Assembly: GCA_039794085.1 (NCBI GenBank)
Contig: JBDIWC010000020.1
Coordinates: 1 to 64,000, forward strand
DNA: 64,000 nt
Source: Gemmatimonadales bacterium
GTDB lineage: Bacteria; Gemmatimonadota; Gemmatimonadetes; Gemmatimonadales; GWC2-71-9
Direction: 5' to 3'
Shown here: positions 28,808-45,924 of the stretch, piece by piece
Layout: every line of letters starts with the position of its first letter
How positions within the stretch are numbered: position 1 is the stretch's first letter
Position numbers and translations under genes: made by a program
Notes under the pieces: model-generated
Seen by the model: the letters and a program-made list of their open reading frames with translations, nothing else
Database searches by the model: none
Told to the model about the DNA's origin: nothing

Positions 28808-28836
28808 ATGCTATTCGCATTGTGGTCTGGGGTCAA
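28808..28836 (-). promoter_or_regulatory. Putative sigma70 promoter, near-leaderless transcript
   Basis: TTGACC-N17-TAGCAT, 8 nt before ATG, no SD. Confidence 0.6.
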
Positions 28837-29714
28837 GCTCTCGGAGTCGGTGAGGCGACTCCGCCCACCTCGGGGACGTCCCATCCCTGGTCAAGGGCTG
28901 CACGGCGGCGCGAATCGGAGCGTCGGCGAATCGACCGGGCCAGAACCATCCAGAGGATCACGAGCCCCCAGATCCCCCCGGCCGACAGCCAGACGATCAC
29001 GCCGTAGCGGTGCCGCACGTCCTTTCGCCAGGCCTCGTCGAACCGGTCCACGGTCAGGCCTGTGGCGGCCCGGAGTGCGTCGTCAAACGGAACCCGGCGC
29101 TCAAGGGCGCCCAGCAGAGGCTCGAGAGACCCGGTGGGATGCCGACGGGCCAGGCTCATCACGGCGTCGCCGGCCAGAGCGTAGGCCAGGCGGATGGTGG
29201 CCGGATCGTCCCGAAGCGCGGCATCGAGCCCATGCAACGTGGGAACGCGTCCCCGCACCACGGCCAGATTGAGGCGGAGGGCATCGAGACGTCCCCACTC
29301 CCCAGCCGCAACCACCGCGTACCCTTCGGCAAACCAGAGGGGGACCCGTCCGGGGAGTGCCGAGGCCAGGATCAGGTGGGCGAGTTCATGGCGAAGGGTG
29401 GCCTCCGGGTCGCCGGCGTCGAGCCGGAGGATGATCGTGCGGGCGGACGGCAGCGTGAGCCCTGCTCCCCAGGCGGGCCCCCGTCCCCGGGTGATCCGCT
29501 GGAGCGCCGCCACGTCGCGTACCAGGATCAACCGGAAGGGCCCGGGCTCCCGCCGACCAAGCCCGTACCACGCGCGGGTCTGGTCCGCTCGTTCGGCAAG
29601 TGCAATCCCCAACGCGAGGTGCTCGGCAGACGCCTGCACCAGAACGTTGCCCACTTGCACTTCCTCGACCGGAAGCCCGAGGGCCAGCTGCGCCGCCAGA
29701 AGGAGTGTCCACAT
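28833..29714 (-). CDS. Membrane-anchored gluzincin metallopeptidase (peptidase MA-like)
   Basis: HELAH plus downstream PLWFAEG; signal peptide; C-terminal TM. Confidence 0.8.
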   Translation of the reverse strand: MWTLLLAAQLALGLPVEEVQVGNVLVQASAEHLALGIALAERADQTRAWYGLGRREPGPFRLILVRDVAALQRITRGRGPAWGAGLTLPSARTIILRLDAGDPEATLRHELAHLILASALPGRVPLWFAEGYAVVAAGEWGRLDALRLNLAVVRGRVPTLHGLDAALRDDPATIRLAYALAGDAVMSLARRHPTGSLEPLLGALERRVPFDDALRAATGLTVDRFDEAWRKDVRHRYGVIVWLSAGGIWGLVILWMVLARSIRRRSDSRRRAALDQGWDVPEVGGVASPTPRA

Positions 29715-29717
29715 GTC

Positions 29718-30626
29718 CTACTCCGCCGGGGGGCCGGGCACCGCACCGCCCGAGGCGATCAGGTCAAGCATCTCCTGGCACCGGGCCGCCCAGGGCGCAT
29801 GCCGGTTGGCGGCGATCCCCGCCTGCCACACCGTTCGCGCCTCGTCGGGTTTGCCCCCGTGCCAGAGGGACCGACCCAGGTCATAGTAGGCTTCGATCAG
29901 ATTGGGCCCCAGGGCCACCGCCTTCCTCAGAAAACCCTCGGCATCACCATGCATTCCCCGTTCAAAGTACACCAGTCCAAGGTAGTAATGAGCATAGAGG
30001 GTGGCCTTCCGGTCCGCCTCCAGCCGGAGCACTCGCGAAAGATGCTCGATGGCCTCTCCGTAGATCCGCTTCTTGAGGCAGATGTACCCGACGTTGACCC
30101 GGGCCAGCGCGTTGTTCGGCTCCCGGCCCAGCACCAGGCTGAAAGTGCCGAGGGCGGCGTCATATTCTGCGTTGAGCATCTGGGCCCACCCGAGGAGAGC
30201 ATGTCCCTGCAGGTCGTTGGGAGCCAGTCGTGTCGCATGTGTCAGAGCCTCGATGGCGCCGACATGGTCGCCGACCGCGATGAGACTCCACCCCTTCTCG
30301 ATGTAGGTGGACGCTCCGATGTGATCTTCCCGGATCGCCGACTCCGGGGGCGTTGCCTGCGGCCCGGGCGGTGTGGCGGCGCGGTCCCCGTCACGCACAC
30401 TCTTGTATTGATCCACCAGCACGCGGATCTGTTCCTTGAGAGAAGTCAACTCGTCCAGGGCCGCATCGGTGCGCCGGAAGAGGGCCACGATCCGCCGACG
30501 CACATCGTCGCGACCCTCCCGCGAACCGGGCGTCTCCAGCCGTTGGCGAATCGACTCGAGCTCGGTCTCGAGTTCGCGGAGGCCCTCGAGGCGGGAGGGC
30601 GTCGGCGCCGGAACGGGATCAGCCAT
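29718..30626 (-). CDS. Coiled-coil plus TPR protein
   Basis: Heptad-rich N-terminus followed by about five TPR units. Confidence 0.8.
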   Translation of the reverse strand: MADPVPAPTPSRLEGLRELETELESIRQRLETPGSREGRDDVRRRIVALFRRTDAALDELTSLKEQIRVLVDQYKSVRDGDRAATPPGPQATPPESAIREDHIGASTYIEKGWSLIAVGDHVGAIEALTHATRLAPNDLQGHALLGWAQMLNAEYDAALGTFSLVLGREPNNALARVNVGYICLKKRIYGEAIEHLSRVLRLEADRKATLYAHYYLGLVYFERGMHGDAEGFLRKAVALGPNLIEAYYDLGRSLWHGGKPDEARTVWQAGIAANRHAPWAARCQEMLDLIASGGAVPGPPAE

Positions 30627-31728
30627 CGGTGCGACTTCCGGGCCCGGGATCCCGCAACACGGCCAGGTGCCGATTCACGGCGGCGCCGATGTCGGGAAGT
30701 GGGAGGACTTCCTGAACTCCTCCTTCGCGTGCGGCCGCCTTGGGCATCCCGAAAATCGCGGATGTCGCCTGGTCCTGAGCGATCCCGATCCCCCCCGCGT
30801 CCCGCAGGGCTCGCAGGCCAGCCGCGCCATCCCGCCCGAGACCCGTCAGCACCACTCCCACGGCGCGGGGACAGGCGTGCTCGGCCACGCTCACGAAGAG
30901 AGGGTCCGCGGCCGGCCGCACGCCCCACACGGAGGGACCCTGGTGGAGGTGCAGAGCCCACCCCCCGGGTGCCTGCTGGTCCACCACCATATGGAAATCC
31001 CCCGGGGCCACATACACGGTGTCTTCCACGATGGGACTTCCCGCCGCCGCTTCGACCACCGTGAGGTGTGAGAGCCCATCGAGCCGCTCCGCGAGGCTGC
31101 GGGTGAACCCGGGGGGCATGTGCTGAACCACCAGATACCCCGCTCCGTATCCGGGGCGGAGCGCCGGGACGAGCTCGGCGAGGGCCCGGGGCCCTCCGGT
31201 GGACGCGGCCACCACCACCAGGAGCCGCGCCCGTCCCGGAATCACCATCCGGTGTGCGGGGAGGGACGGGGCTGGCGCAGGTCTCGCCAGCACCGGGAGC
31301 CGCGCCACATCGGTCACCGCGGCGGCGCGCAACGCGTCTGTCAGGCGGCGCCGGAATTCCTCCACTCCGGCGGGGGACCGGTCCGGGGCCTTGGCCACGA
31401 GTTCCGCCGCCCCCAACTCGAGGGCGCGGATCGCGAGCCCTGTCCCCGGACCGGCCCAGGAGCTCACCACCACGATGGGGCGCGGGGCCTCGGACATGAG
31501 GTACCCGATCGCCTGGAGGCCATCCAGCTCGGGCATCTCCAGGTCCATCGTGACCAGATCAGGGTCCTCGGCATGGACTTTCCGCAGCGCGTCGAGTCCA
31601 TTGCGGGCACTACCCGCCACCGCGAATCCCGGGATGCTCCCCACGACGTCGGCGATCAGCCGGCGGAAGAAGGGGCTGTCGTCCACCACCAGGACGCGCC
31701 GGATTCCCGGGTCAGAGGGTCTCGACAC
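30619..31728 (-). CDS. cheB: Chemotaxis response regulator / methylesterase CheB
   Basis: REC domain (VVDD, TMDLEMP); catalytic ASTGG, QHMP, TGLGRDG; start approximate. Confidence 0.95.
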   Translation of the reverse strand: MSRPSDPGIRRVLVVDDSPFFRRLIADVVGSIPGFAVAGSARNGLDALRKVHAEDPDLVTMDLEMPELDGLQAIGYLMSEAPRPIVVVSSWAGPGTGLAIRALELGAAELVAKAPDRSPAGVEEFRRRLTDALRAAAVTDVARLPVLARPAPAPSLPAHRMVIPGRARLLVVVAASTGGPRALAELVPALRPGYGAGYLVVQHMPPGFTRSLAERLDGLSHLTVVEAAAGSPIVEDTVYVAPGDFHMVVDQQAPGGWALHLHQGPSVWGVRPAADPLFVSVAEHACPRAVGVVLTGLGRDGAAGLRALRDAGGIGIAQDQATSAIFGMPKAAAREGGVQEVLPLPDIGAAVNRHLAVLRDPGPGSRTDG

Positions 31729-32200
31729 CACGCGCCACCGACGTGATCTCCAGTCGTCCGGACTCGACATCCAGAGTCACCGACCGGCCATGCTCCCCTC
31801 CGACCAACTCCCCGGCCACGAGGATCCCGTGTGCCGCCAGTGCCTCCCGCGACGCCACCGTGTTGCGCTCACCCATCTGCAGGGTCCCGCGGGCACTCAG
31901 GGACGCAAACATACTGGCCCCCCCGATCAGCCGGGCGGTGATGCGTTCCTGGCCAGCCCCCAGGTCGGCCATGGCGTCCAGCAGGGCGGGAACGGCCGTC
32001 TCCGGGTAGCGGCCGGGCGCGTCGTGAATCCGGCTCAGGGCGGGGGACGGAAGCAGGATGTGGGCCATCCCCCCGGTTCGGGACGCCGGATCGTGCAGCA
32101 CGATCGCAATGCAGCTTCCCAGGCCGAGAGTGACGAGTTCCCCCGTGCCCCGAAGAGCCCGGAGTTCCCCGACGCCCACCATGTGACGGGGCCCGCTCAT
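31712..32200 (-). CDS. cheD: Chemoreceptor glutamine deamidase CheD
   Basis: LGLGSC, GMAHILLP, GGASMF, GERN. Confidence 0.93.
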   Translation of the reverse strand: MSGPRHMVGVGELRALRGTGELVTLGLGSCIAIVLHDPASRTGGMAHILLPSPALSRIHDAPGRYPETAVPALLDAMADLGAGQERITARLIGGASMFASLSARGTLQMGERNTVASREALAAHGILVAGELVGGEHGRSVTLDVESGRLEITSVARGVETL

Positions 32201-33009
32201 GCGATCCTCCGATACAGGCGGGATCGCGGATCCACCGCGACCATCCGTCGGCTCGCCGGTCCGGTCAGGCCCTCCACCTTGCCCAGAAGGAGCACGCCCC
32301 CCGGCGCCAGGGCGTCGACAAACTTTTGATAGAGTGACTCCTGCACGTCGCGGCCGAAATAGATCACCACGTTGCGGCACACGATCAGGTCATACGGGGG
32401 ATCGGGGGGCGGGTCCACACCCAGATCGTGCCGGAGGAAGCGCGCGCGGTTCCGGAGCCCCGGACGGATGGCCACCTGCTCGGGCCCGGCGGATGCCAGG
32501 TGCCGGCGGGCCCGGTCCGGGACCGGCACCCCGAAGTTCCGCTCGGGGTAGACCGCGGCCCGGGCCCGATCGAGCACGGCGGGGTCGACATCGGTCGCAT
32601 CCACTCGACTCTCGGCCGACCAGGCCGGATCCCGCCCCCCCTCCCCCAGATCGGCCAGCATCATCACGATTGTCCACGCCTCCTCTCCCGTGGCGCATCC
32701 CGCACTCCAGCATCGCAGGGGAGGGCCCGTCACCCGGGCGCGCAGAGTGGCCTCGAGGGAGTCCCACGCCTCCGGGTTGCGAAAGAACTGCGTCACATTG
32801 ATGGTCAGCGTCTGCAACAGCCGCTCGACCTCCTCGGGTGTCCCCCGGAGGATCCCCGCGTAGTCGGCCATGGTCTCCACCCCGCACGCACGCATCCGTA
32901 CGGCGAGCCGGCGGCGGAGACACCGATCCTTGTACATGGAGAGCGCGGGAATTCCCGCCGCGCCCCGAAGCGCCTGGATCACGACTGTCAGATCCTCCTG
33001 CTCCGGCAT
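32197..33009 (-). CDS. cheR: Chemotaxis methyltransferase CheR
   Basis: TINVTQFFR, WSAGCATGEE, ATD, CRNVVIYF. Confidence 0.95.
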   Translation of the reverse strand: MPEQEDLTVVIQALRGAAGIPALSMYKDRCLRRRLAVRMRACGVETMADYAGILRGTPEEVERLLQTLTINVTQFFRNPEAWDSLEATLRARVTGPPLRCWSAGCATGEEAWTIVMMLADLGEGGRDPAWSAESRVDATDVDPAVLDRARAAVYPERNFGVPVPDRARRHLASAGPEQVAIRPGLRNRARFLRHDLGVDPPPDPPYDLIVCRNVVIYFGRDVQESLYQKFVDALAPGGVLLLGKVEGLTGPASRRMVAVDPRSRLYRRIA

Positions 33010-34625
33010 CAGGTCACGCTCCCGGCGAGGGAGTCGAGGTTGGCCCGGGCCAACTGATGGTCGGAATTGATGGTCAGTGCCTGTTCCCAACACCGGCGCG
33101 CCTCCTGCGCATCGTGACGCTTCAGCGCCAGGTTGCCCAACTTGAAATAGAGATCGTCGCCGAGGTCCGGAGCCAGGGTGGCCGCCCGGCGATACCAGCT
33201 TTCGGCCTCCTCGTATCGTCCCGACCGATAACAGATGTCCCCCAGGTTCTTGGTGACCTGAGCCAGGCCGGGTCCCTCCGCGATGGCGTCACGCAACTCG
33301 GCTTCCGCCCCGGCCAGGTCCCCCGAGGCCTCGAGAAACACGGCGTGGGTGGCCTTCAGGACCGGATGGCCGGGATGGGACTCGAGCCCCTCCTGGATGC
33401 GGGTCAGGGCCCCCTCCAGGTCGCCGCGGAGGGCACACACCCGGGCCCGGGCCCACGGCAGGGTCGGCGGGGGAGTCGTCGTGCCGAACAGGGCCAGGGC
33501 CGCGTCGAGGCGCGCCTCCGCCGCATTGGCGTCCCCCCGGGCCAGGGCCACAATGCCCCAGGAGGTCAGGATGCGAGGCTGGTCCCGACCGCGCCCCACG
33601 GCCTCCGCCAGAAGCTGCTCCGCCTCGTCGAGACGCCCCTGGCGTTCGAGGGCCACCCCGAGATTGTGGAGAGTCACGGCCCGGGGGCCCGCGCGGTCGA
33701 GTGACATCCGGAACGCCGCCTCCGCGTCGGCCCATGCGCCCTGGCGCATCGCGATGAGCCCGAGGTGAAACGGCGCCGCACCCTCGCCGGGGCGCAGATC
33801 GGCCACCCGGCGGAACTCCCTCCTTGCTTCTTCCAGCATTCCGGTGCGGTAGAAGGCCACCCCGAGATTGCGATGCTCCTCGATCTGGCTCTCCTGCTTC
33901 CGGGTGTCGGCGGGGGGGCTCGCCGTACCGACCCGCCGGATGAGTCCCGCCGTGAGCAGTCCATAGAGAGCCTTCGCCACGTCGAACTCGGACATCCCCG
34001 CCTCCTCCACCAGAGTCCGCACATCCCGCCGGCCATCCAGAAGCTCGAGGACGCGGCGCTGCGTCACGGTGAAGTCGAGTGTCTGATCGGGCTCATGCTC
34101 CATCCCGAAGATGAGATCAAAGGACGGGATTTTCTTCTCGATCAGAGCCCACTCGTCCACCCGGCGGGCCCCTTCCAGGAGGACCGATTCCGGGTTGATC
34201 CGGCACAGAACTTCGTCGGCCTCGGGCTGGATCCCCGCCTCGAAGCTGAAGGTCCCGGAATCCCAGGTGAACAGGGCGAAGATCGCCTCCTCCACCTGCA
34301 TCCTCACATGTTCTTCCATCTCACCCCGGCCCAGCATGCCCAGGGAGACGAGAATCTCCCCCAGGCGGAGGTTGGGAACATTGGATTGAAACCGCATGGC
34401 CGCGTCGAGCTGAGTGGCCGTGATGCGCCCGGTCCTCACCAACATGTCGCCCAGGCGATCCCGCCGGTTGACGATCGTGGCATGGACAATGAACCCCTCC
34501 TCGAAGAAGATCGATCCGTGACTGTGGCGGTCCGCCAGGGCGAGACACCCCGTCCGGCGTCCCAGAAAGAGGAGTTGCATGACGTCGGGGAGGCTCGCTT
34601 CCCTCAGACTGCCCTTGATCGCCAT
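33009..34625 (-). CDS. DUF4388 (PATAN-like) domain plus tandem MshEN motif plus TPR protein
   Basis: IKGSLREASLPDVMQLL…WDSGTFSF…LLEGARRVDEW pattern; two RLG..LV..G motifs; C-terminal TPRs. Confidence 0.85.
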   Translation of the reverse strand: MAIKGSLREASLPDVMQLLFLGRRTGCLALADRHSHGSIFFEEGFIVHATIVNRRDRLGDMLVRTGRITATQLDAAMRFQSNVPNLRLGEILVSLGMLGRGEMEEHVRMQVEEAIFALFTWDSGTFSFEAGIQPEADEVLCRINPESVLLEGARRVDEWALIEKKIPSFDLIFGMEHEPDQTLDFTVTQRRVLELLDGRRDVRTLVEEAGMSEFDVAKALYGLLTAGLIRRVGTASPPADTRKQESQIEEHRNLGVAFYRTGMLEEARREFRRVADLRPGEGAAPFHLGLIAMRQGAWADAEAAFRMSLDRAGPRAVTLHNLGVALERQGRLDEAEQLLAEAVGRGRDQPRILTSWGIVALARGDANAAEARLDAALALFGTTTPPPTLPWARARVCALRGDLEGALTRIQEGLESHPGHPVLKATHAVFLEASGDLAGAEAELRDAIAEGPGLAQVTKNLGDICYRSGRYEEAESWYRRAATLAPDLGDDLYFKLGNLALKRHDAQEARRCWEQALTINSDHQLARANLDSLAGSVT

Positions 34626-36559
34626 CAGCGGAACTCCTCCAATAGCTGATCGGTGACCTGGGGCCAGACGGGAATGATCTTTTCCTGGAGACGGGCTCCG
34701 GTCAGCAATGGATTCTGCAATCCCGATCCCGACCGGACCCGGGGGGCCACCGGGGACGGCGCCTCCCCGAGGGCCTCCCGCGCCAGGCTCGATGTGGGCG
34801 GAGTGCCCCGGCGCGTGGCCGCCGCCATCACGCGCTGCACGGCGGCCTGAACCGCGCGGGCTGATGCCGCGGGCGGACGGGCGATCACGTCGACGAGGGC
34901 CGCGTCGTCGCGATGTCGCTCGGGGAGAGCGTGCATGACCAGTCGGGCGCGAAGCTCCCGGTCCGGAGGCTCCAGATCCACGATGACGCCCGCCGTGAGG
35001 CGGGACAACAGCCGTGCCTCGACACCCTCCAGCTCCTGCAGCGGCGTGGATGTCGTCACCAGGACCGGGCGACCGGAGGACACGAGGGCCTCCAGGGCGT
35101 CGGTCAGGAGAGCCAGCGTGTGAGGAGCCCCGATCCGGTCCAAGTCGTCCACGAGGATCGCCGAGGCGATGCGGATGCCGGCCCACCATCCCGCCGGGTC
35201 CCCCGCGAAGTCGGGGGAGGACAGGCACGCGACGACACCGCCATGACGCTCCAGCCAGGCGGATCCGAATCCGTGCAGGAGATGAGTCTTGCCACTCCCG
35301 CTGGCTCCGTGTACCACGACGGGATTGTCGCCGGTGTCCCCTCCGAGGAGCCGGTCGAGGGCCCGGAGCACCGACCGCGTCGAGGCGCTCTCCACAAAAG
35401 TTTCCAGCCGCCAGGCGGGGTCGGGCCCCGGGAGACCGGCCACACGGAGCCGGATCTGGTCCAGGGCGCGGCGCGCCCCGGGAAGATCATCGGGATCCTG
35501 AAACACGGCTCCTTCCCCGCCCCGGGGATCCAGAGCCCGTGCCTCGCGCGCCAGGGCCACCATCGCCTCGGCATCCCGCTCGAACTCCGCCAGCAGGGTG
35601 TCAGGGTCGTCAGGAAACTCCTCGCGCAACAACCCTTCCAGCCGCGCCGTGCGGATGCCCTCCCCCTCCCATCGGAGAATCGCCGCTCCCACTCTCTCCC
35701 GCCACCGGTCCACCTGCTCCGCGACGGTGGCCACGACCTCGGAGAGGAAGTCGCCAAACTCGTCGGCGTGGTCCCGGTCCTCTTCCACCCCATCCGGGAA
35801 GGCACGAACCCTTTCTGCCGAACCGCTGACGACATGGGTTCCGGGCAGGTCACCTGGCGGGCCCTCGGGAACCGGCCCCGCCGCTCCCAGTTCCCCCAGC
35901 AGCACGGAGGCCTGGGAGACATCCAAGGGGTGCCGGCTGACCGCCTGAAAGGCCACCAGGCGCCGGAAGGCTCCGAGCAACTCGCGGATGTTCCGCACCG
36001 GCAGGAGGGCGAGCGCCTCCAGGACGGCGGGATCCAGAGCCGGGTCCGCGGGAAGAGAGCGCAGGAGGCCCAGCCGGCGGTCGGGTCCGGGGAGATCGAG
36101 CTCCACCACGAGCCCGCTCGCCGACACCCGGCACAGCCGGGAATCGGCGTGAGGGATCTCCCCCGGGGACAGGGCGGAGGTCAGCACGGTGGCGCGGCGT
36201 GCTTCGGCTCTCGCCTCCAGCACCTCCGCCGCCACCCCCTGTCCGGCGCGGGGCAGCTGGTCCACATCGTCCACCAGCAGCAGGTCGGCCCCCGTCCACT
36301 CCTCGCGTTGCTCCGGCCGAAAGGCCGCGCCGCTCACCCGCACGGCCCGCCGGGCGGGATCCACGCGCGCCGCGAGTCCCTCGATCGCGGACAGAAGGTG
36401 GCTCTTGCCGAAACCGGGAGAGCCCACCAAGAAAAGGGGGTTGTAGGGCGGATGACGTGACTCGGCCACGGCCCGCGCCGCGGTGACGGCCAGCGCCCCC
36501 TGGGGTCCCGCGACATAGGTGTCGAATCGTTCCGCCGACTGCGCCCCGATCCTCGTCAT
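34625..36559 (-). CDS. Protein with two tandem DnaA/Hda-like AAA+ modules and no DnaA DNA-binding domain
   Basis: FDTYVAG…[29 protein letters not shown]; second module [29 protein letters not shown]. Confidence 0.85.
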
Positions 36560-37173
36560 GGCTCCTCCACCCCGTCGGTCCCGGTGCGGGGGGCGAGCCG
36601 TTTCAGCACCAGGCCGGACAGTGCCTTCAAGGTCTCGAACACCCCGACGCCGGTCAGGGCATCGGCCCCGAAGCTCGGTACATCGCGAAAGTTGAGCGCG
36701 TCATCCAGCTCTGCGCTTGTCAGGATGAGATCTCTCGGCAGGTCCTGCTTGTTGAACTGGAGAATCAACGGCACGGTCCGGATGTCCACGCCCTGCTCCC
36801 GCAGGTTGTCCTGCAGGTTCTGCAGACTCTCCACGTTGTCGTCGAACCGGCGGGCCTGACTGTCGGCCACGAAGACCACCCCATCCGCACCCTGAAGAAC
36901 GAGTCGGCGGGTGGCATTGTAGTAGACCTGTCCCGGGACGGTGTACAGCTGGAACCGGGTGGTGAAACCGGAGATCGATCCCAGGTCGAGGGGAAGAAAG
37001 TCGAAGAACAACGTGCGATCCGTCTGGGTGGCCAGCGACACCATCTGGCCCCGCCGCGACGGCGGGACCCGGTCGTGGATGTACTGCAGGTTCGTGGTCT
37101 TGCCCGATCGTCCGGGACCGTAGTAGACCAGTTTGCAGGTGATCTCCCGCGCACCGAAGTTGACCAGGGACAT
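36556..37173 (-). CDS. mglA: MglA family small GTPase
   Basis: [36 protein letters not shown]. Confidence 0.95.
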
Positions 37174-37177
37174 GGGC

Positions 37178-37639
37178 CTAGTCTCCGAAGAGGGCGCGAA
37201 GGCTGGCGTCGAGATCGGCCTCGAAGTTCTCGGCGAGGACCGGTCGCGTTTCCCGGACCGGGGCGGCGCCGGCCAGAGCCGAGACCAACTGGCCGAAGAA
37301 GAGCTGGACCAGACCGATCGAGGTGTCCCGGCCGAACACCACGAGTCCGATCCACTGGGCATCCGGCATGGGGAGAGGCGAGAGGTACACCCCGAGCTCG
37401 GTTCCTTGATGCACCAGGGCACCGAAGTGCTCCCCGCCGATCACCTGTCCCAGTTCGGAGGTGGAGGCCATGATGCCGGCCCCGAGGGCCGCCGCCGACA
37501 TCACATCGAGCGCCCGGGTGAACCCATGCTGGGCCACCACCTGCCCCGCCGACGTCATCAGCAGGACCACCCGGGCCCCCGACTCGGCTACGAACCGGTC
37601 CAGGGGCCCGGCCACCCACGGTTCAATGCTGCGTTTCAC
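37178..37639 (-). CDS. mglB: Roadblock/LC7 protein, MglB-like GAP
   Basis: Roadblock pattern ([30 protein letters not shown]); adjacent to mglA. Confidence 0.8.
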
Positions 37640-37986
37640 CCCGCCCCCTTCCCGCCCAGATCCAGCAGCCGGAGCCGCAGCACACCGCGGTGAGTTCGTT
37701 CCGTGGTCACGGCGACCGCCAGGACCACTTCGTCCACCGGTACCACCAGCACGGCACCATGCTCCGCCTCGAGCTGCAGGAAGCGGGGGGGACGTTGTCC
37801 ACCCGCCACGGCGGCTCGGCGCATCCGGCCCCACAGGCTGGCGGACAACGCCGCGGCCGCCGCCGCATCGAATCCCTCACGCACCATCTCAGCAATCACC
37901 AGACCATCCTCCACGGCCACCAGGAGGGCGCCCTGAACCCCGGGGACATCGGCGATGGCGGCCAACGCGGACTCCTCGATCGACAT
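37636..37986 (-). CDS. Roadblock/LC7 domain protein
   Basis: VPGVQGALLVAVEDGLVI, AAALSA, G.LR pattern. Confidence 0.85.
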   Translation of the reverse strand: MSIEESALAAIADVPGVQGALLVAVEDGLVIAEMVREGFDAAAAAALSASLWGRMRRAAVAGGQRPPRFLQLEAEHGAVLVVPVDEVVLAVAVTTERTHRGVLRLRLLDLGGKGAG

Positions 37987-38768
37987 CAGCCGAGGCGCTC
38001 CAGCCATTGTTGCGCGTGCCGGGCCGCGCGCCGGGCCACGAGGGGAAGCCGCCCCGGGGGGGCGCCGGCCTCACCCACGGCGAGCAACAGGGTGTCCGGC
38101 GTGGGGGGAAGAAGGTGCATGGCGGCGTCCGGTCCCTCCGTCGACAGGCACTCCCACGAACCGAGATCAAGCAGGCGGGCCACGCGGGACGCCTCCTGCG
38201 ACACGCCGGCGAGCAGCGCCGCAAGGCCGTCCGAGACCTCGGACCCATCGGGAGTATGGAGACTTCCCGCGAGACGCCGACCATCGAGATCCACCAGGAT
38301 TGTGCCGGGCATGGTGTCGTCGAGGGGTGGCTCCAGAGGCGCGCCACCGGTCGGCGTGGATCGGCCCGCCACCTGGGCCCGAGTCCGTTCCACGGCCTGG
38401 GCGAGACTCGGGTCCTCGGGTTCCAGGTGGGCCGCCATCTCCAGATGGCGCAATGCGCGAGAGAGGTCCTCGTTCCGGAAGGCGAGATAGGCGAGGCCCT
38501 TGTGGGCCCCGGCGTGGTCGGGTTGGAGCCGCAGCGCGGTGGTCCAGGCGTCGAAGGCCGCATCCCCGTCGCCCTGATCGCTCCGGATCCGCCCGAGCAG
38601 ATCATGGGCATCCGCCAGGTGAGGATACCGGGCCAGACCGCTGGTCGCCACCGCCAGGGCGGCATCCAACTGGCCAACCCGGCGGAGGTGTTCTCCCAGT
38701 GGAAGAAACGCCAGGCTCGTCGGGTCGGCGGCAAGCCGCGCCGTCAACGTTTGCACATTATCTGCCAT
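37986..38768 (-). CDS. TPR plus Roadblock/LC7 fusion protein
   Basis: N-terminal TPRs; C-terminal GTILVDLDG…LAALLAG…LLLAV Roadblock-like fold. Confidence 0.75.
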   Translation of the reverse strand: MADNVQTLTARLAADPTSLAFLPLGEHLRRVGQLDAALAVATSGLARYPHLADAHDLLGRIRSDQGDGDAAFDAWTTALRLQPDHAGAHKGLAYLAFRNEDLSRALRHLEMAAHLEPEDPSLAQAVERTRAQVAGRSTPTGGAPLEPPLDDTMPGTILVDLDGRRLAGSLHTPDGSEVSDGLAALLAGVSQEASRVARLLDLGSWECLSTEGPDAAMHLLPPTPDTLLLAVGEAGAPPGRLPLVARRAARHAQQWLERLG

Positions 38769-39912
38769 GCCGGTCCCGCAGGCCGGTCCCCAGGGATCGG
38801 GCCGCCTCAAGGTGGTGAAGGATGGCGGGTTGGTGCTGCCGTTCGGCAGACTCCGCAATGCCAAGAGTGCTCCACTGTTCCCACGCCGCCACGGCCTCGT
38901 CGAACCGTGCCGTGCCCACACAGGCGAAACCGAGCAACCGCCAGGCCTGGGGAACCTCGGGCGATCGGCGCGTGGCTTCCCGAAGTGCCTCCCGCGCTTC
39001 CGCATAGCCCTGCTGCACGAGCCAGGCCCGCCCGAGCAGAAGATACCCCTCCACCATGTCCGGGAAGCTGCTGATGACCGTCCCCGCCATGAAACGGGCG
39101 GATTCCGCATCGCCAAGCCGGAGGTGCTCCTCCCCCTGCTGCAGCATGGCCGCGGGATCCTGCCGGGACGCGGCCGAGGACTCCGCCGTGGGATCGCTCA
39201 ACAGAATAACACCGGCCGAGGCCAGACCGAAGAGGGCGCGCGCCACGTCAAAATCCGATTCCCCCAGCATCCCGGCGATGGTCCGGATGTCGTGTCGCCC
39301 GTCCACACGGGCCAGGAGGCGCCACTCCCCGGGGAGAAGGGTCAGGGAACCCGGATCCAATTGCCGGGGGGGAGGCGCGAGACGGGGCACCACTCCCAGA
39401 TGTGGGACCTTGCCCTGGATCCGGGACCACTCATCGATCCGCCGGGCGGCCTCCAGCAGGAGCGACTCGGTCGAGATCCGGATTCCTGCTTCCTGCGGGA
39501 TGTCCTCCGGCGGCACGTCCTCGAACACGAAGTGTCCCTCCGACCAACCGAGGACGGTGAAGACCACCTCCTCGATCTGAGCGCGGGCCTGGCGCTCGAC
39601 ATCGCGCGGGCTGATCGCCCCGATCGACACCAGGATCTCTCCCAGCCGACGGGAGTCCCCGGCCTCCTGCATGGCACGGGCCCGCGTGAGGTCCTCCTGA
39701 TGAATCTTCCCCGCTCGAAGCAACGCCGTTCCGAGCGGATGGGGATTGGACCGGATGGCGGCCGCGACCACGGCGGCGTTGTGGACCCAGATCGTGCCTT
39801 CGTTCTGCCGCAGCTCGGACGTGATGCGGAGCACCCCGGTCTTCCTCCCCAGATCGAGCAACTGGAAGACGTCGTGAATGCCGAGTTCGCGCAGGGGACC
39901 CTGGATGGCCAT
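38758..39912 (-). CDS. DUF4388 domain plus MshEN-like motif plus TPR protein (paralog of 33009-34625)
   Basis: IQGPLRELGIHDVFQLL, WSEGHFVF, LLEAARRIDEW; RLGEILVSIG; TPRs. Confidence 0.85.
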   Translation of the reverse strand: MAIQGPLRELGIHDVFQLLDLGRKTGVLRITSELRQNEGTIWVHNAAVVAAAIRSNPHPLGTALLRAGKIHQEDLTRARAMQEAGDSRRLGEILVSIGAISPRDVERQARAQIEEVVFTVLGWSEGHFVFEDVPPEDIPQEAGIRISTESLLLEAARRIDEWSRIQGKVPHLGVVPRLAPPPRQLDPGSLTLLPGEWRLLARVDGRHDIRTIAGMLGESDFDVARALFGLASAGVILLSDPTAESSAASRQDPAAMLQQGEEHLRLGDAESARFMAGTVISSFPDMVEGYLLLGRAWLVQQGYAEAREALREATRRSPEVPQAWRLLGFACVGTARFDEAVAAWEQWSTLGIAESAERQHQPAILHHLEAARSLGTGLRDRHGR

Positions 39913-39914
39913 GG

Positions 39915-42623
39915 TCAGCCGGCCTCCAGGCCGAAAATCTGGATCAGTTCGCGCGCCGAGCGGACGCTGGCCCGGGCTTCCGCGGCCAACGGGCCCGTGG
40001 GCGCAAGGGCCAGCACGCGGTCCCAGGCCTCCACCGCCGCCCCGAAGTGCCGGAGTCGAGATTCGGCCACGCCCAGGTGGAAAGAGGCCACAACCTGCTC
40101 CGGATCCAGGGCCAGGGCGCGCTGCAGGGCCCGCCGGGCCATGTCCGGCCGCCGGTCCGCGAGCAGGGATCGCCCCAGCGCCACCAAGGCCTCCACCGAC
40201 AGCGGCTCGGCCACCAGAAAGTCCACCAGCAGGTTGACCGCTTCCCCGGGCCGCCCCCCGCGCCGGAGGAGGTGGGCGAGGGAGAGCACCGTGTCCTGAT
40301 GCGTCGGCAGCAAACGGAGAGCACGGTCCCACGCCATCCGGGCCTCACCGGGGTTGCCAGCGGACTCGCAGGACGCCCCCAGCTCGTACCAGGCCTGCAC
40401 CAGACCGCCGTCCAGGTCGAGCGCGGCCCGGAACGCCTCCATCGCCCCGCCGTGATCCTGCTGGCGCCGCGCGATCGTCCCCTTCAGGACGAGCAGGTCG
40501 GCCCGCCCCGGAGCGGCCGTGATCGCCGCCTCGACGTCGTCGGCTGCTCCCGCCAGATCCTCGGTCACCAACCGAACCCGGGCCCGGATGACGCGGGCAT
40601 CCACGTTGCCCGGCAGCGCCTCCACCACCGCGTGCGCCGCCCGCAGTGCCTCCTCGGCCCGCCCCAGAGCCAGGAGAGCTCCCGCCTCTCCCAAGCGCAA
40701 CCGGACGCTGTCCGGGTCGGCGTCCCGGGCGATGCGATACCGCTCCAGAGCCTCGCCATAGAGTCCGCGCCGCGCAAAGACCTCCGCCAGGACACCGGCG
40801 GCCGCCGCCGCGCTCGCCCCGCGCTGGACGGCGCGGTTGATCTCCGCAGTCGCCGCATCCAGCAACCCCTTGGCGAGATAGTCTGCGGCCAACTGGAAGG
40901 GGTCCCCCGCTAAGGGGTCGCCCTCTTCGGGATCCGGAGTCGGCGAGGGGGGCTCCACCAAGCGGTCGAACACGCCGTCCAGAACCCCGGCGTCGAAGGA
41001 GAATCCGGCCACCTGCTCGGCTCCCTCCCGTCCGGACAGGTGGGGCGCCACCTCGAAGGCCGACTCCTCGTGCTGCAGCTGAAGAGTCAGAGAGAGTTTC
41101 TGCGGAACGTACAGAGGGTCGAGCTCCAGGGCCCGGCGCGTCTCCCGTAGCGCCGCATCGAACTCCCCCAGGTGACTGAGCGCAAATCCGAGGTTGTAAC
41201 GCGCCACCGCCAGATCGGGAGCGAGTTCCACCGCCCGACCGAAGGCGTTGCGGGCGTCGGTGAAGCGCTTCAGGTCCATCAACACCAGGCCGATTCCATT
41301 CCACGCTCCGGGATGGTCCGCATGCTCGGCAAGCACCATGCGGTAGATCTCGGCCGCGGCCTGGTAGCGCCGGTGGTGCAGGTGAAGCATCGCCAGATTC
41401 AGCCGGGCCGGGGTCAGATCGGGCCGCGCGCGCAGCGCCGCTCCGAAGGCGCGCTCCGCCTCGCGGGAATCGCTCTCGGCGCCGAGGGCTACGCCCACAT
41501 TGTTCCAGGCCAGCGCATTGGAGGGATCGATGTCGACCGCGCGACGGAACACAGACCGGGCTTCCTCGACACGACCCGCCAGATGGAGGCAGACACCATG
41601 CGCATTGCAGACGGCGCTGTTGCCGGGCTGGACCGCCCGCAGAGACTCGAACAGGTCGAGCGCCGATTTGTAGTCGCGGCGGAGCAGGTGAACCTCGGCC
41701 ATTCCCTGGAGGGTGGCACTGTGGTCCTCCCCCGTTTCGAGCGCGAGCCGGTACTCCCGCAGCGCCTCCGCAAGATACCCCCGCTGCCGGAATGCGAGAG
41801 CGAGCCGTCCGTGCGCCTCGGCGCCCGGAGCGCTCGCGGGAACAGCCGGCGAGGCGGAGCCTCCCCGCTCGGAAGCGCGTGGCGGCTGGGCCTGTGAGGA
41901 TTCCAGCCGCAGGTTGCTGTGTGCCGTGGCGAGCCCCGGGTTGAGCTCGATGGCCTTCCGCGTCGAGGCGCGAGCCGCCTCCTGACGGCCCAGATCCCCG
42001 TAGACGAACCCCAGGAGGTAGTGAGCCTCCGCGTTGGTGGGCGCGAGCCGAGTGGCTTCGGTCAGCGCCTCCAGGGCCAGCTCGCTCAGGCCGAGCTGAT
42101 ACCGTGCCTCACCCAGGTACACCCGCGCCACCGAGCTCGCCGCATCCGCGTCGCAAGAGCGCTCGAACCACACGACGGCCTCCTCGGGCCGTTGACGGGC
42201 CTGGGCCACAAGCCCGAGTTGCACCAGGGCCGTCGCGTCCCGGGGCCGGAGACGTCGCAGTTCCTCGAACTGCTCCGCGGCCTCGTCCAGGTGTCCCAGG
42301 CCCAGCAGGGCCCGCCCCAGTTCCAGCCGAAGCTCCGCGTCCATGGGCTGGTGGCGCAGCCGCTCCCGAAGCGCCGGAATCACCCGATCGTATTCACCTG
42401 ACTCCCTCAGCACCTGGTCCAGGTTGCGCCGCGCCGTCTCCATCCGGGGATCGAGTTCGAGCGCATGACGGAACGCCGCGATCGCCTCGGGAATCAGCTG
42501 GCGGTGATGATAGAGGTATCCGAGGTTATTGTGGGCGCCGGGATCAGCGGGGTCGATGCGCCGCGCCAGCGCCCGGAGCGCCTCGACCTCCCGCGCACCG
42601 GTCCCGGATCCGATCATGATCAA
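39915..42623 (-). CDS. Large multi-TPR scaffold protein
   Basis: Many TPR units (AHNNLG, AWNNVG, ARYNLG); no signal peptide; start uncertain by a few codons. Confidence 0.88.
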   Translation of the reverse strand: MIMIGSGTGAREVEALRALARRIDPADPGAHNNLGYLYHHRQLIPEAIAAFRHALELDPRMETARRNLDQVLRESGEYDRVIPALRERLRHQPMDAELRLELGRALLGLGHLDEAAEQFEELRRLRPRDATALVQLGLVAQARQRPEEAVVWFERSCDADAASSVARVYLGEARYQLGLSELALEALTEATRLAPTNAEAHYLLGFVYGDLGRQEAARASTRKAIELNPGLATAHSNLRLESSQAQPPRASERGGSASPAVPASAPGAEAHGRLALAFRQRGYLAEALREYRLALETGEDHSATLQGMAEVHLLRRDYKSALDLFESLRAVQPGNSAVCNAHGVCLHLAGRVEEARSVFRRAVDIDPSNALAWNNVGVALGAESDSREAERAFGAALRARPDLTPARLNLAMLHLHHRRYQAAAEIYRMVLAEHADHPGAWNGIGLVLMDLKRFTDARNAFGRAVELAPDLAVARYNLGFALSHLGEFDAALRETRRALELDPLYVPQKLSLTLQLQHEESAFEVAPHLSGREGAEQVAGFSFDAGVLDGVFDRLVEPPSPTPDPEEGDPLAGDPFQLAADYLAKGLLDAATAEINRAVQRGASAAAAAGVLAEVFARRGLYGEALERYRIARDADPDSVRLRLGEAGALLALGRAEEALRAAHAVVEALPGNVDARVIRARVRLVTEDLAGAADDVEAAITAAPGRADLLVLKGTIARRQQDHGGAMEAFRAALDLDGGLVQAWYELGASCESAGNPGEARMAWDRALRLLPTHQDTVLSLAHLLRRGGRPGEAVNLLVDFLVAEPLSVEALVALGRSLLADRRPDMARRALQRALALDPEQVVASFHLGVAESRLRHFGAAVEAWDRVLALAPTGPLAAEARASVRSARELIQIFGLEAG

Positions 42624-43240
42624 TCGCGGGCGATCGACTCGAGGATCGCGCGCAGGGAGGGAAAGTCGGGCAGCAGGAGAAACTCGCCCCGGAGGCTCTC
42701 CTGGCTCCCCTCCACCCGAAAGGCGGTGTCCACGCAGAAGACGATGTCCCTCTCCTGTCCGAAGCTCACATAGGTCGTGGTCAGGACCGCCCCCGCGAAG
42801 TCGAGCACGAAACTCGGAACCGAGGGCACCAACATCATGCTCATGAAATCGCTGAGCGCGTTGAGATAGGCCGAACTCAGGATGTTCCCCGTCTCCTTGA
42901 GGGAGGAGATTTCCATCTCCCCGAAGGTGGTGGTCGACCCGGTGTCCCGCCGGAGGAGGATGTCGCAGAGCACCCGCGCCGACGGCTCCGGGATGACCAC
43001 CATGGTCCGGCCCGTCAGGTCGCCCATCATGTGCATGAGGATCCCCGCAACGACCGTGTCCGGGGGCCCGACCAGGTGCGCCACCTCCTCGAGGCGCCGG
43101 ATGTTCACCTCCGGCACATCGATCATGATGGTGCGCCCCGTCATCTGCGACAGCGCGGTGGCGGCGTGACCCGCTCCGATGTTGGCCACCTCCCGGAGGG
43201 CGTCCCGCTCGATTTCACCAAGCTTCTGCAAGGCGTCCAT
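42620..43240 (-). CDS. cheC: CheY-P phosphatase CheC
   Basis: DALREVANIGAGHAATALS and SSLKETGNIL (two E-xx-N motifs). Confidence 0.95.
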   Translation of the reverse strand: MDALQKLGEIERDALREVANIGAGHAATALSQMTGRTIMIDVPEVNIRRLEEVAHLVGPPDTVVAGILMHMMGDLTGRTMVVIPEPSARVLCDILLRRDTGSTTTFGEMEISSLKETGNILSSAYLNALSDFMSMMLVPSVPSFVLDFAGAVLTTTYVSFGQERDIVFCVDTAFRVEGSQESLRGEFLLLPDFPSLRAILESIARD

Positions 43241-43251
43241 GCAACCTCCCC

Positions 43252-45120
43252 TCAGACCAGGACCATGGGATCGAGCACCAGGATGGGTACGCCGTCCCCC
43301 AGAATGGCGGCGCCGTTGATCCATCGCGGCATGCCGCGCGGGGCGTCAACCGGTTCGACCACGATATGTTGCCGACCTACTAATGTATCCACCACGACGC
43401 CGATTCGCCGATGTCCCTGGTCCACCACCACGACCGGAGTTCTCCGTCCAGCCCGGCCCGGCCCCGGGGCTCCGGTCACCCCCCGCAGGACCACGGCCGG
43501 AAGGGTTGCCCCGCGGTAGGAAATGGTCCCCCCGGATGCCCGGGCAGGAATCTCCTCCACGTGCCCCGTCTCGACAATATGGGCGAGGGGCACGGCATAC
43601 CGCTCCGGGCCCACCTGCACGATGAGCGCCTGCACGATGGCCAGCGTCAGCGGGAGACGGAGCTCGAACGTCGTCCCGGCCCCGGGCCTCGTATGGAGGG
43701 ACACCCGGCCACCGAGTTGCCGGAAACGGGTCAGGACCACGTCGATCCCGACTCCGCGACCGGACACCCCGGTCACCTCCCGACTCGTGCTGAATCCGGG
43801 CCGCCCGAGCAGCGCCAGAAGATCCTCATCCGAATCGAGGGTGGAGGTGGGCCCCAGGAATCTCTCCCGGCGGGCCTTGTCCACCACGGCCTCCCGGTCG
43901 ATGCCCCGTCCGTCGTCCCGAACCAGAATGAGCACCGAATTGTGTTCCCGGGTCGCGCGCAGCAGGATCCTTCCCTCGGGCGTCTTCCCCGAGCGCACCC
44001 GCTCCTCGGGAGTCTCGAGCCCATGATCCACCGCGTTCCGAAGCAGGTGGAGAAGCGGATCGCCGATGTCATCGAGGAGGGACCGGTCAAGCTCGATGTC
44101 TCCCCCCTCGATCACGAAGGCCACCCGCTTCTCCAACTGACGCGCGAGATCCCGGATCGGTCGGGGGAACCGGTCGAACACCTCCGCCACCGGGGCCAGC
44201 CGGGCCTCGGTCACACTGGTCTGGGCCTGGGACACCAGGCGACTGATGCGACCCGACAGGGTCTCCAGGGGGGATCCCGGAGCGGTCACCGCAATTTCGG
44301 CGAGTTGGTTGGTGGCCACGACCAATTCACTGACCTGGTTGAGGAGGTCGTCCAGACGCTGGAGAGTCACTCGAACCTGGCGGCCCGCCATTCGCGTGGC
44401 CGGTGTGGGACGATCCCCCACGATGACCGAGAGCACGTCACCCGCCTCCCGGATCGCCTCGCGAATCCGCTCGTCCGAGGCGGCGGTGGCCAGCCGGAAG
44501 GAGAGGTCGCCTCCGAAGGCCGGGCTCTGGATCGCCTCTCGGGGCGGGAACACCGCCGACACCTTCCCGAGAAGCTCCGCCTTGAGGAGCACCAGGGCCG
44601 CCCGGGCACCGAGCATCTCCCCATCATGCCGAAGGGTGACGCGGATCGGGCGCCCCGCGGGGGCTCCGAGCCCGACCGGAATGGCGAACTCCCCGGTGCG
44701 GTGGACGTCCACCTCCCCGCCTTCTCCCTCGCCGGCCGTCTCCGGACTCGCGGCCCGCCGAAGCCCGGCAAGCACCTCGTCCACCGGCAACTCCGCGTCC
44801 CGGCCCTCGGCGGCGGGATCGATGCCCGCCTCCAGGAGATCCACTGCCTGGAAGCAGAGATCGATGATCCCCGGATCGGCGGATCTCTCGTGGTCGCGGA
44901 TGGTGGCGAGGAGGCTCTCCAGGGCGTGGCTCAGGTCGGCAAGCCGGGTGTAGCCCATGGTGGCGGCCATCCCCTTGATGGTGTGGATGGACCGGAACAG
45001 ACCATCGAGGGGAGCGGAGGCCGTGGGGGCCCGCTCCCACTCCAGGAGCAGCGCGTTGCACTGGGCCAAGTGCTCGCGGCTGTCCGCCCGAAAGAGAGCG
45101 ACGTACTTGTCGAGATCCAC
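43252..45120 (-). CDS. cheA: Chemotaxis histidine kinase CheA (Hpt-P2-dimerisation-HATPase-CheW)
   Basis: HTIKGM, HLLRNAVDHG, DDGRG, GFST, GRGVG, LPLTL. Confidence 0.97.
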   Translation of the reverse strand: MDLDKYVALFRADSREHLAQCNALLLEWERAPTASAPLDGLFRSIHTIKGMAATMGYTRLADLSHALESLLATIRDHERSADPGIIDLCFQAVDLLEAGIDPAAEGRDAELPVDEVLAGLRRAASPETAGEGEGGEVDVHRTGEFAIPVGLGAPAGRPIRVTLRHDGEMLGARAALVLLKAELLGKVSAVFPPREAIQSPAFGGDLSFRLATAASDERIREAIREAGDVLSVIVGDRPTPATRMAGRQVRVTLQRLDDLLNQVSELVVATNQLAEIAVTAPGSPLETLSGRISRLVSQAQTSVTEARLAPVAEVFDRFPRPIRDLARQLEKRVAFVIEGGDIELDRSLLDDIGDPLLHLLRNAVDHGLETPEERVRSGKTPEGRILLRATREHNSVLILVRDDGRGIDREAVVDKARRERFLGPTSTLDSDEDLLALLGRPGFSTSREVTGVSGRGVGIDVVLTRFRQLGGRVSLHTRPGAGTTFELRLPLTLAIVQALIVQVGPERYAVPLAHIVETGHVEEIPARASGGTISYRGATLPAVVLRGVTGAPGPGRAGRRTPVVVVDQGHRRIGVVVDTLVGRQHIVVEPVDAPRGMPRWINGAAILGDGVPILVLDPMVLV

Positions 45121-45130
45121 CCGGCGCCGG

Positions 45131-45493
45131 TCAGCTGAGGAGGCGCTGAACGGCCTCGAGCACGCGCGAGGGCTGGAACGGCTTGACCACGAAGTCCTTG
45201 GCCCCCGCCTGGATCGCCTCCACCACCAGGGCCTGTTGCCCCATCGCGCTGCACATGAGAATCTTGGCGTCGGGATCGATCTTGACGATTTCCCGCACCG
45301 CGTCGATGCCCCCCATGTCGGGCATGACGATGTCCATGGTTACCATGTTGGGGCGGAGTTCCCGGTAGCGTTCCACAGCCTGGGCCCCGCTCTCGGCCTC
45401 CCCGACCACTTCGTACCCGGCCTGGGTGAGAATGTCGGTGATCATGGTGCGCATGAAGATCGCGTCGTCACATACCAAAACGGTCTGACCCAC
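45131..45493 (-). CDS. cheY: Chemotaxis response regulator CheY (Bacillus/Thermotoga type)
   Basis: DDAIFMR, TMDIVMP, CSAMGQ, KPF; GGAGG RBS before GTG. Confidence 0.95.
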   Translation of the reverse strand: MGQTVLVCDDAIFMRTMITDILTQAGYEVVGEAESGAQAVERYRELRPNMVTMDIVMPDMGGIDAVREIVKIDPDAKILMCSAMGQQALVVEAIQAGAKDFVVKPFQPSRVLEAVQRLLS

Positions 45494-45543
45494 GTGCTGC
45501 CTCCGTGCGAGGGGATCGTGAGGTGCCCCGGGGGCACCCGATG

Positions 45544-45924
45544 TCACAAGGCCCGGCCGACACCGTCCGGGGCGAAAAGCGGACCCACCTGGGCCGCGAG
45601 ATCCGGTACCTCCACGCCCGCCACGTCCGCCTGATCCGCATCCCGAAGATCAAGCACTTCGCTCACCGCCACCCCGACCGCACGCCCTTCCAGCTCGAGG
45701 ACCAGAATCGCCGCCGGATCTTCGGCCCGAGCCTCGCCGAAGAGCGTCCGGCCGTCAATCACCGTGATGATCGTCCCCCGGACGTTGACCAGCCCGAGAA
45801 TCTCCGCAGGGGTCCCCGGAATGCGCGTGGCGACACGGGCCTCCAATATCTCCCGCACGCCGGACACCGGGGTACCGAACCGGCGGGATCCCACCCGCCA
45901 TTCCAGGAGGCGCGACCCGGTCAC
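45544..45924 (-). CDS. cheW: Chemotaxis coupling protein CheW
   Basis: VREI, TRIPG, GLVNVRGTIITVID. Confidence 0.88.
   Translation of the reverse strand: MTGSRLLEWRVGSRRFGTPVSGVREILEARVATRIPGTPAEILGLVNVRGTIITVIDGRTLFGEARAEDPAAILVLELEGRAVGVAVSEVLDLRDADQADVAGVEVPDLAAQVGPLFAPDGVGRAL

Follow-up and report, generated by a model that had tools for sequence, protein, structure and literature searches.

A conserved DnaA-derived twin ATPase accompanies a PATAN gene in signalling clusters of Gemmatimonadota

DnaA-type AAA+ domains have been described for opening of the replication origin and its control. What such a domain does, in two copies, within a signalling operon is the question raised by a gene in a 64,000-nucleotide stretch (the window) of Gemmatimonadales bacterium GCA_039794085.1 (contig JBDIWC010000020.1, positions 1 to 64,000). 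The gene, located at 34625..36559 on the minus strand (as are all features of the window given below), encodes a protein of 644 residues (P0001) with two DnaA-type AAA+ modules and, according to Pfam and a structural model, without DnaA domains I, II and IV. It represents a real, conserved family of DnaA-derived ATPases, of which no description was found in the literature searched (coverage of work on PATAN and MglA proteins was incomplete). The steadiest partner of this family is the gene directly downstream, not mglA, which lies directly upstream; the downstream gene (33009..34625) encodes a PATAN (DUF4388) domain, an MshEN-like cyclic di-GMP (c-di-GMP) motif (residues 57-106; NF053729, 43 bits, cut-off 38) and TPRs.

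Translation of the minus strand reproduced the open reading frame (ORF) and all motifs quoted in the original prediction. AAA+ module 1 (residues ~11-225; 35885..36529) contains GSPGFGKS (46-53), LLVDD (94-98), SRLCRV (140-145) and NIRELLGA (190-197), with Walker A, Walker B and the sensor II arginine present, and AAA+ module 2 (residues ~381-599; 34763..35419) contains GASGSGKT (418-425), ILVDD (468-472), RLLSRL (516-521) and SARAVQAA (566-573), with Walker A, Walker B, arginine finger R520 and sensor II R568 present. A homolog search yielded 156 matches, the best 120 of which are the homologs referred to in counts of homologs out of 120; two AAA+ modules were found in 120/120, and the named taxa among them were all Gemmatimonadales, a lineage of soil and water bacteria. 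Sensor II of module 2, which had been called divergent, keeps the catalytic arginine: R568 (R334 in E. coli DnaA) is retained in 120/120 homologs. The modules are separated by a flexible linker rich in glycine, proline and acidic residues (~226-264; 35768..35884) and by what had been described as a helical segment. The latter is helical and proved to be one copy of an unnamed repeat of ~105 residues (W-x-x-E-G-Y/I...D-P-D; residues ~265-375; 35435..35767), defined by profile comparison and common to archaeal proteins; the copy of the query had no Pfam match and no significant match in a fold search. The conserved C-terminal tail (E-K-x-x-W/P-x-W-P...E-E; 34628..34687) is also recognizable in family forms that lack module 2.

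PF00308 (Bac_DnaA) matched the twin protein twice, both times above the cut-off (64.5 and 42.5 bits); the AAA+ region starts at residue 11, and no other DnaA Pfam domain (I or II) matched at E ≤ 0.01. The domain IV profile (PF08299) had no match in the twin protein, as predicted, and a single match genome-wide, in a 469-residue frame on another contig (C28) that constitutes the canonical dnaA. In 5/5 other carriers checked, a canonical dnaA with domain IV was likewise present separately from the twin gene. In the AlphaFold2 model, both AAA+ modules are well folded and the middle domain consists of four helices (mean predicted local distance difference test score [pLDDT], 86.8), with a disordered linker (pLDDT < 50 at residues 227-264); at a predicted template modelling score (pTM) of 0.52, the model does not fix how the domains pack. 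The top Foldseek matches were DnaA domain III, and the best sequence matches (Pfam and PDB) were likewise DnaA. The GC content at third codon positions of the twin gene (0.82) was like that of its neighbours, and comparison with a same-genus copy across 574 codons gave 48 synonymous and 25 non-synonymous differences; judged by these codons, purifying selection acts on the gene.

A profile of the middle domain was found in 201/301 Gemmatimonadota genomes, nearly always in single copy. Carriers made up 120/124 genomes of family f1, 56/71 of f2, 3/3 of f3, 4/6 of f4, 1/1 of f5, 12/48 of f7 and 4/4 of f8, and there was no match in the searched genomes of f6 (23) or f9 to f12 (20). Among the genomes counted, four are marked as unpublished (G055, from which locus L018 derives, G095, G154 and G179); no conclusion depends on these alone. 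No relative was found in the viral contigs searched. A complete Gemmatimonadales-type cluster (MglA, 79% identity) occurred on a contig labelled Acidimicrobiia (L039), for which misbinning is likelier than transfer, and in three nearly closed genomes (L126, L129 and L136) the ATPase gene was split by a frame change, possibly through assembly errors.

Gene order was compared in a close set of the 44 best-scoring loci (including that of the window and biased to its family) and in a distant set of 20 further loci, hand-picked across seven families. mglA was located directly upstream of the twin gene in 44/44 close loci and 15/20 distant loci, and in the window the start of the twin gene overlaps the mglA stop as ATGA, as originally reported, and is preceded by GGAGG. 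PATAN-TPR was located directly downstream in 41/41 close loci with downstream sequence (3 of 44 end at a contig edge) and in 20/20 distant loci. The stop of the twin gene overlaps the start of this downstream gene as TGATG, an overlap that the original prediction had not remarked on, and the gap was −1 nucleotide in 47/61 loci and between −11 and +14 nucleotides in 61/61. PF14332 was present in all 201 carriers. In f7, the repeat domain and PF14332 were found in the identical 12/48 genomes, and mglA in 23/48. In four f7 genomes the twin gene lay beside PATAN-TPR, and their sole mglA scored closer to the second mglA paralog of the genome studied here; in the two of these that consist of a single contig, the sole mglA was more than 1 Mb away from the twin gene. 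The link to mglA stands for most lineages, but these f7 loci do not support mglA as the defining partner.

The original prediction regarded the modules as complementary halves of an intramolecular pseudo-dimer. Among 253 candidate proteins, 38 were dropped (fragments or proteins without a single repeat), leaving 215 complete proteins, of which 195 had two modules and 20 had one (module 1, repeat and tail). Both pockets and both arginine fingers were kept in 144/195, so complementarity is not a rule of the family. Single features were lost in module 1 finger (21 proteins, as in the query), module 2 pocket (13), module 2 finger (4) and module 1 pocket (1), with mixed losses in 12/195. Losses that spared the module 1 pocket and the module 2 finger numbered 34 versus 5 for the reverse, counts that are not independent since the proteins are related; in the 40 proteins left by thinning at 55% identity, all features were kept in 8, finger 1 was lost in 11, pocket 2 in 8, finger 2 in 1 and pocket 1 in 1. 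What survives of the earlier claim is that erosion, as read from aligned residues, tends to spare one composite site, formed by pocket 1 and finger 2. In the query, the arginine finger of module 1 is missing (V145), sensor I is lost in module 1 (A129) as well as in module 2, and the initiator-specific helices are shortened in both. The arginine of the module 1 finger is present in 106/120 homologs, making its loss in the query lineage specific; sensor I was kept in 169/195 first modules and 15/195 second modules. These residue counts carry some noise, as divergent rows were aligned automatically.

In B. subtilis DnaA, residues I190, K222, R202, R206 and R264 are essential for binding of single-stranded DNA (ssDNA) or filament formation, according to the part of PMC6669920 consulted. 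Mapped onto the family through E. coli numbering, these residues were retained in module 2 of most two-module proteins (I190 as I or V in 152/195, K222 as K in 121, R202 and R206 in 172 each and R264 in 182), and module 1 has lost both ssDNA residues and the R206 equivalent. In the query the ssDNA and filament residues are mostly lost. Shortened initiator helices were found in the query and 8 other proteins, mostly of one lineage and always in both modules. Given these shortened helices and lost residues, the query is an eroded member of the family, in which ssDNA binding is unlikely.

A related architecture was found in archaea. A genome scan returned 14 full-length bacterial loci, many ordinary dnaA genes and one Thermoplasmata locus, the protein of which combines DUF835 and a DnaA-type AAA+ domain with a helical segment resembling the middle domain and belongs to a large family; this DUF835 family was found through its AAA+ domain, independently of the repeat. 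A search of 1.84 billion representatives with the middle-domain profile gave 407 matches, and 20 tandem-repeat proteins were seen among the best 150 of the 407 (period, ~100 to 110 residues; 4 to 11 copies above 10 bits). In four of these proteins the array is followed by a terminal DnaA-type AAA+ domain; DUF835, KaiC-like or zinc-ribbon domains are present in others. Among 18 array proteins looked up, three clusters had a taxon, Thermoplasmata/Thermoplasmatota twice and Bathyarchaeia/Thermoproteota once. A hidden Markov model (HMM) of 97 archaeal-type units matched 113/120 Gemmatimonadota homologs above 15 bits (reversed control, 0) and 120/120 Thermoplasmata DnaA-DUF835 proteins above 25 bits, and the query was its sole match among 21,424 ORFs of this genome. 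Compared directly, the bacterial and Thermoplasmata repeats matched only weakly at first (probability 56%, E = 1e-4), and the relation became clear only via the arrays (hhalign probability 97.8%, E = 1e-12). An atlas search with the repeat domain gave no usable match.

The N-terminal domain of the Thermoplasmata protein P0134 is DUF2226-like, with template modelling scores of 0.59 to 0.76 to PatA_N clusters in predicted structures. On these models, the archaeal chain (PATAN-like fold, repeat and DnaA-type ATPase) may be read as a fusion matching the two coupled bacterial genes. At the archaeal locus (L049:9287-17753), the DnaA-DUF835 gene lies beside KaiC/RAD55-like ATPase and zinc-ribbon-like genes (by ORF reading); that genome, which is incomplete, had no DnaA domain IV match and ten roadblock matches. 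We found no paper on the Thermoplasmata "DnaA/Hda family" DUF835 proteins, which carry automatic database names only. One protein of 3090 residues (P0245) contained up to 23 matched repeat stretches and had no Pfam match.

Phylogenetic trees were used to place the family. From the 98 rows, 28 were dropped in the first tree, and 23 more (redundant, degenerate or long-branch) in the second, to which 5 DnaA rows were added; the trees contain one Hda row, on a long branch, and leave out ZapE. In the careful tree, modules 1 and 2 were each monophyletic (99-100) and sisters to one another (87/87), and the phylum's own DnaA formed a separate clade (98/98). Grouping of the bacterial and Thermoplasmata proteins reached values of 91 and 82 in the Shimodaira-Hasegawa-like approximate likelihood ratio test in quick trees and less than 80 in the careful tree. 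Three approximately unbiased (AU) tests rejected nothing, neither a clade with the archaeal proteins (P = 0.58, best likelihood) nor one with Hda (P = 0.48) or with the phylum's own DnaA (P = 0.38); the Hda row did not group with the family in three trees. Placement against DnaA and Hda thus yields a DnaA-clade fold (by Pfam, PDB sequences and Foldseek), with the sister group left undecided by the tree.

The steady core of the system consists of AAA+ module 1, one helical repeat and the C-terminal tail, with translational overlap with the PATAN-MshEN-TPR gene, and in most cases it lies within an mglBA/roadblock/Che cluster. On balance, we lean towards a DnaA-derived, non-replicative ATP switch (or assembly factor) that, together with the PATAN-MshEN-TPR protein, takes part in pilus or polarity signalling linked to MglA and Che. 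It was one of two branches left open by the original prediction, that of an initiator fold reused as a signalling switch, and it agrees with the DnaA-clade fold, the presence of the true dnaA elsewhere and the signalling cluster. The ATPase would form a complex with the PATAN protein, in which the repeat may act as a docking arm or spacer and the tail may provide another docking peptide. Hydrolysis of the ATP in the pocket of module 1 would use an arginine finger supplied by module 2 or, in single-module forms, by a neighbouring molecule. The nucleotide cycle might be gated by c-di-GMP on the PATAN partner, plus MglA and Che input where the cluster is kept, and would control the place or time at which the PATAN protein engages a surface machine, for which the type IV pilus motor is the likeliest candidate. 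For a pilus output we count the five PilT matches above the cut-off in this genome, which also has flagellin and eight matches to methyl-accepting chemotaxis proteins, and the binding of PATAN to PilB1/PilC of the pilus motor in Synechocystis (bioRxiv 10.1101/2021.06.11.447907, part consulted, which also equates DUF4388 with PATAN). In the part of PMC11580455 consulted, PATAN proteins are named merely as candidates in Myxococcus. A flagellar output was considered and is unlikely, as flagellin was not found in 122/176 f1 and f2 carriers. More tentatively, and with somewhat less than even confidence, a PATAN/DUF2226 fold, the repeat and a DnaA-type AAA+ domain without DNA-binding domain might constitute a signalling or assembly machine common to bacteria and archaea, split between two coupled genes in Gemmatimonadota, where it would serve the control of pili or polarity by MglA, Che and c-di-GMP, and fused in Thermoplasmata into one chain in which the number of repeats varies.

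Several observations weigh against this interpretation. The ssDNA and filament residues of DnaA in module 2 of most members are not explained by a pure signalling role, and 15 genomes have PATAN without a match to the repeat domain. The backbone of the careful tree was unresolved, with no joint bacterial-archaeal clade. Because the arrays were found with the bacterial profile, the reciprocal test of the repeat is partly circular. PATAN and the archaeal N-terminal domain were not significantly related by hhalign (probability, ~1%), and the likeness between them is one of predicted structures alone. The pTM of 0.52 gives no support for fixed packing of module 1 against module 2; the complex, its activity and its phenotype are all predicted rather than observed, and the pilus output is carried over from work on cyanobacteria and Myxococcus.

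The other branch of the original prediction, a regulator of replication, found no positive genomic support. As an Hda-like protein or filament poison, the ATPase would co-assemble through module 2 with DnaA or insert its finger into DnaA-ATP, tying initiation to polarity or c-di-GMP. The essential residues of B. subtilis DnaA (from the same part of PMC6669920) that persist in module 2 of most two-module proteins are what it would lead one to expect, the finger was kept in 11/12 distant module 2 copies in which Walker A or the lid was lost, and the AU test left a clade with Hda or own DnaA standing. However, the query has no N-terminal clamp motif, as originally noted (E. coli Hda has QLSLPL), and its lineage lost the ssDNA and filament residues; the gene was not found in 100/301 genomes, including whole families, and module 2 was absent from 20/215 complete proteins. 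Neighbours are exclusively signalling genes, and the unit of repeat and AAA+ is also archaeal, with no domain IV in the one (incomplete) genome checked. Archaeal replication initiation uses Orc1/Cdc6. We consider such a regulator unlikely.

A direct effector or regulator of MglA, in which MglA-GTP would bind and switch the twin ATPase and the PATAN protein would be secondary, fits the upstream position of mglA in close and most distant loci and the ATGA overlap. It also fits the co-loss in f1 and f2, in which the repeat domain was lacking in 11/13 genomes with a single mglA versus 8/182 with two, a pattern that could come from physical linkage alone, as by deletion of the whole cluster, among related genomes that are not independent. 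Nevertheless, in f7 the twin gene persists with PATAN-TPR, with the sole mglA unlinked and nearer to the other paralog, and the archaeal fusions have a PATAN-like fold and no GTPase, which makes this explanation quite unlikely. Handling of ssDNA at the pilus base, for example in DNA uptake, by a module 2 recruited by the PATAN-TPR protein appears improbable: ssDNA residues are kept in module 2 and not in module 1 (V211 equivalent, 153 versus 1; R245 equivalent, 168 versus 3 of 195), and the partner has a domain type associated with pili (bioRxiv 10.1101/2021.06.11.447907, part consulted), yet several lineages can do without module 2, the initiator helices are shortened in both modules of the query and 8 other proteins, and no competence gene was seen among the scanned neighbours. 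Finally, a functionless, decayed, lineage-specific dnaA duplicate is scarcely credible and is refuted at the level of the family by conservation in 201/301 genomes, mostly in single copy, the invariant catalytic residues, conserved tail and synonymous excess, even though erosion has gone further in the query lineage than in the family (finger and sensor I lost, helices shortened, branches long).

The cluster around the twin gene reads, in minus-strand order, cheW, cheY, cheA, cheC (42620..45924), a long TPR gene (39915..42623), a second PATAN (DUF4388)-TPR gene (38758..39918), a TPR-roadblock gene (37986..38813; start codon chosen by us), a second roadblock/LC7 gene (37636..38007), an MglB-like roadblock gene (37178..37636), mglA (36556..37152), the twin ATPase, PATAN-TPR, and cheR, cheD, cheB and a TPR gene (29718..33006), as identified by Pfam or, for mglA, mglB and the second PATAN gene, by profile matches. 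MglA is a small GTPase with the sequence TVPGQ, which marks group 1 MglA, near the genes of which PATAN genes occur (part of PMC4316618 consulted). The group 1 mglA of the window adjoins roadblock and PATAN genes and thereby belongs to an MglA-PATAN neighbourhood. Table S2 of that paper lists a Gemmatimonas neighbourhood as "PATAN>MglA>-PATAN>", in which we read the dash as an unlabelled gene at the position of the twin ATPase; DnaA is not mentioned in the main text and the supplements searched. No DnaA boxes were found in window 30-47 kb, a zero count that says little at a background of 0.05 per kb, and a promoter and terminator scan gave results at chance level.

A second mglB-mglA pair is present in this genome (G000:C32:12276-13397; MglA 52% identical), and most genomes of the order have two mglA paralogs. 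In one lineage (L041:9394-9948 and L044:4915-5466) the operon MglA has diverged sharply (40 to 47% identity versus ~80% elsewhere) and cheR, cheD and cheB are gone downstream, with the ATPase and PATAN genes retained. A peptidase MA-like gene (28833-29714) follows the cluster in most loci, including f7 loci without mgl and che, and lspA- and rluD-like genes (45921-47566; named by sequence reading) precede it; in loci that have lost the mgl/che block, rluD lies immediately upstream. A division and cell-wall cluster with ftsI-like and rsmH-like genes (23331-26513; by ORF reading) is encoded on the same strand, some 8 kb farther downstream.

If the proposed switch is correct, PATAN domains outside cyanobacteria would gain a concrete ATPase partner, a new repeat domain would be defined, and many "DnaA" annotations in Gemmatimonadota and Thermoplasmata would be corrected; a non-replicative branch of DnaA would also explain "DnaA" in Thermoplasmata archaea. 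Compared with DnaA domain III (PF00308; TIGR00362; PDB 8BV3, 8BTG and 2Z4R), the AAA+ core and lid are common (29% identity and a root mean square deviation [rmsd] of 2.2 Å over 232 columns), and Walker A and B, arginine finger and sensor II are conserved in the twin family too. The twin protein differs in its two modules, its extra helical repeat and tail and the absence of domains I, II and IV, in a score of 195.4 bits versus the TIGR00362 cut-off of 343.9 and in the location of its gene in a signalling operon, with the true dnaA elsewhere. DH[ST]TV, a domain IV motif present in E. coli DnaA, was found in 0/120 homologs. Hda/HdaA (TIGR03420, NF006571) is likewise a DnaA-type AAA+ protein without domain IV, in both proteins an arginine finger could be donated in trans, and the shortened initiator helices of the query are similar (Walker A lysine to Walker B aspartate, 45 and 47 residues in modules 1 and 2 versus 46 in Hda and 57 in E. 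coli DnaA). In contrast, the clamp motif is N-terminal in Hda and was found there in 0/120 homologs (3/120 had a QL.LP look-alike within module 1, at residue 159), the twin protein keeps the Walker A Lys and Walker B DD in place of the Arg and DN of E. coli Hda, and, apart from its twin architecture, it scored 101.2 bits versus the TIGR03420 cut-off of 194.8. The ZapE/AFG1 profile (PF03969) was not among the 13 Pfam families matched by P0001 at E ≤ 0.01, and double-ring AAA proteins of the p97/Cdc48 type ranked below DnaA in Foldseek (rmsd, 16 to 24 Å; 12 to 17% identity). By the sequence features tested, the twin ATPase is not DnaA, Hda or ZapE. Thermoplasmata DUF835 and repeat-array DnaA proteins share the same repeat followed by a DnaA-type AAA+ domain without domain IV and, as modelled, include within that chain a PATAN-like (DUF2226) fold, comparable to the neighbouring gene in bacteria; they differ in having one AAA+ module, 1 to ~11 repeats, a C-terminal DUF835 or zinc ribbons and no TPR, and in having KaiC-like and zinc-ribbon-like neighbours at L049, not mglA and che. 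MglA/MglB polarity modules (Myxococcus MglA-SgmX and the cyanobacterial PatA-type regulators) likewise bring together group 1 MglA, roadblocks, TPR and PATAN; a DnaA-type ATPase is not mentioned for them in the parts of the literature examined, and in Gemmatimonadota CheA, CheW, CheY, CheC, CheD, CheR and CheB share the cluster.

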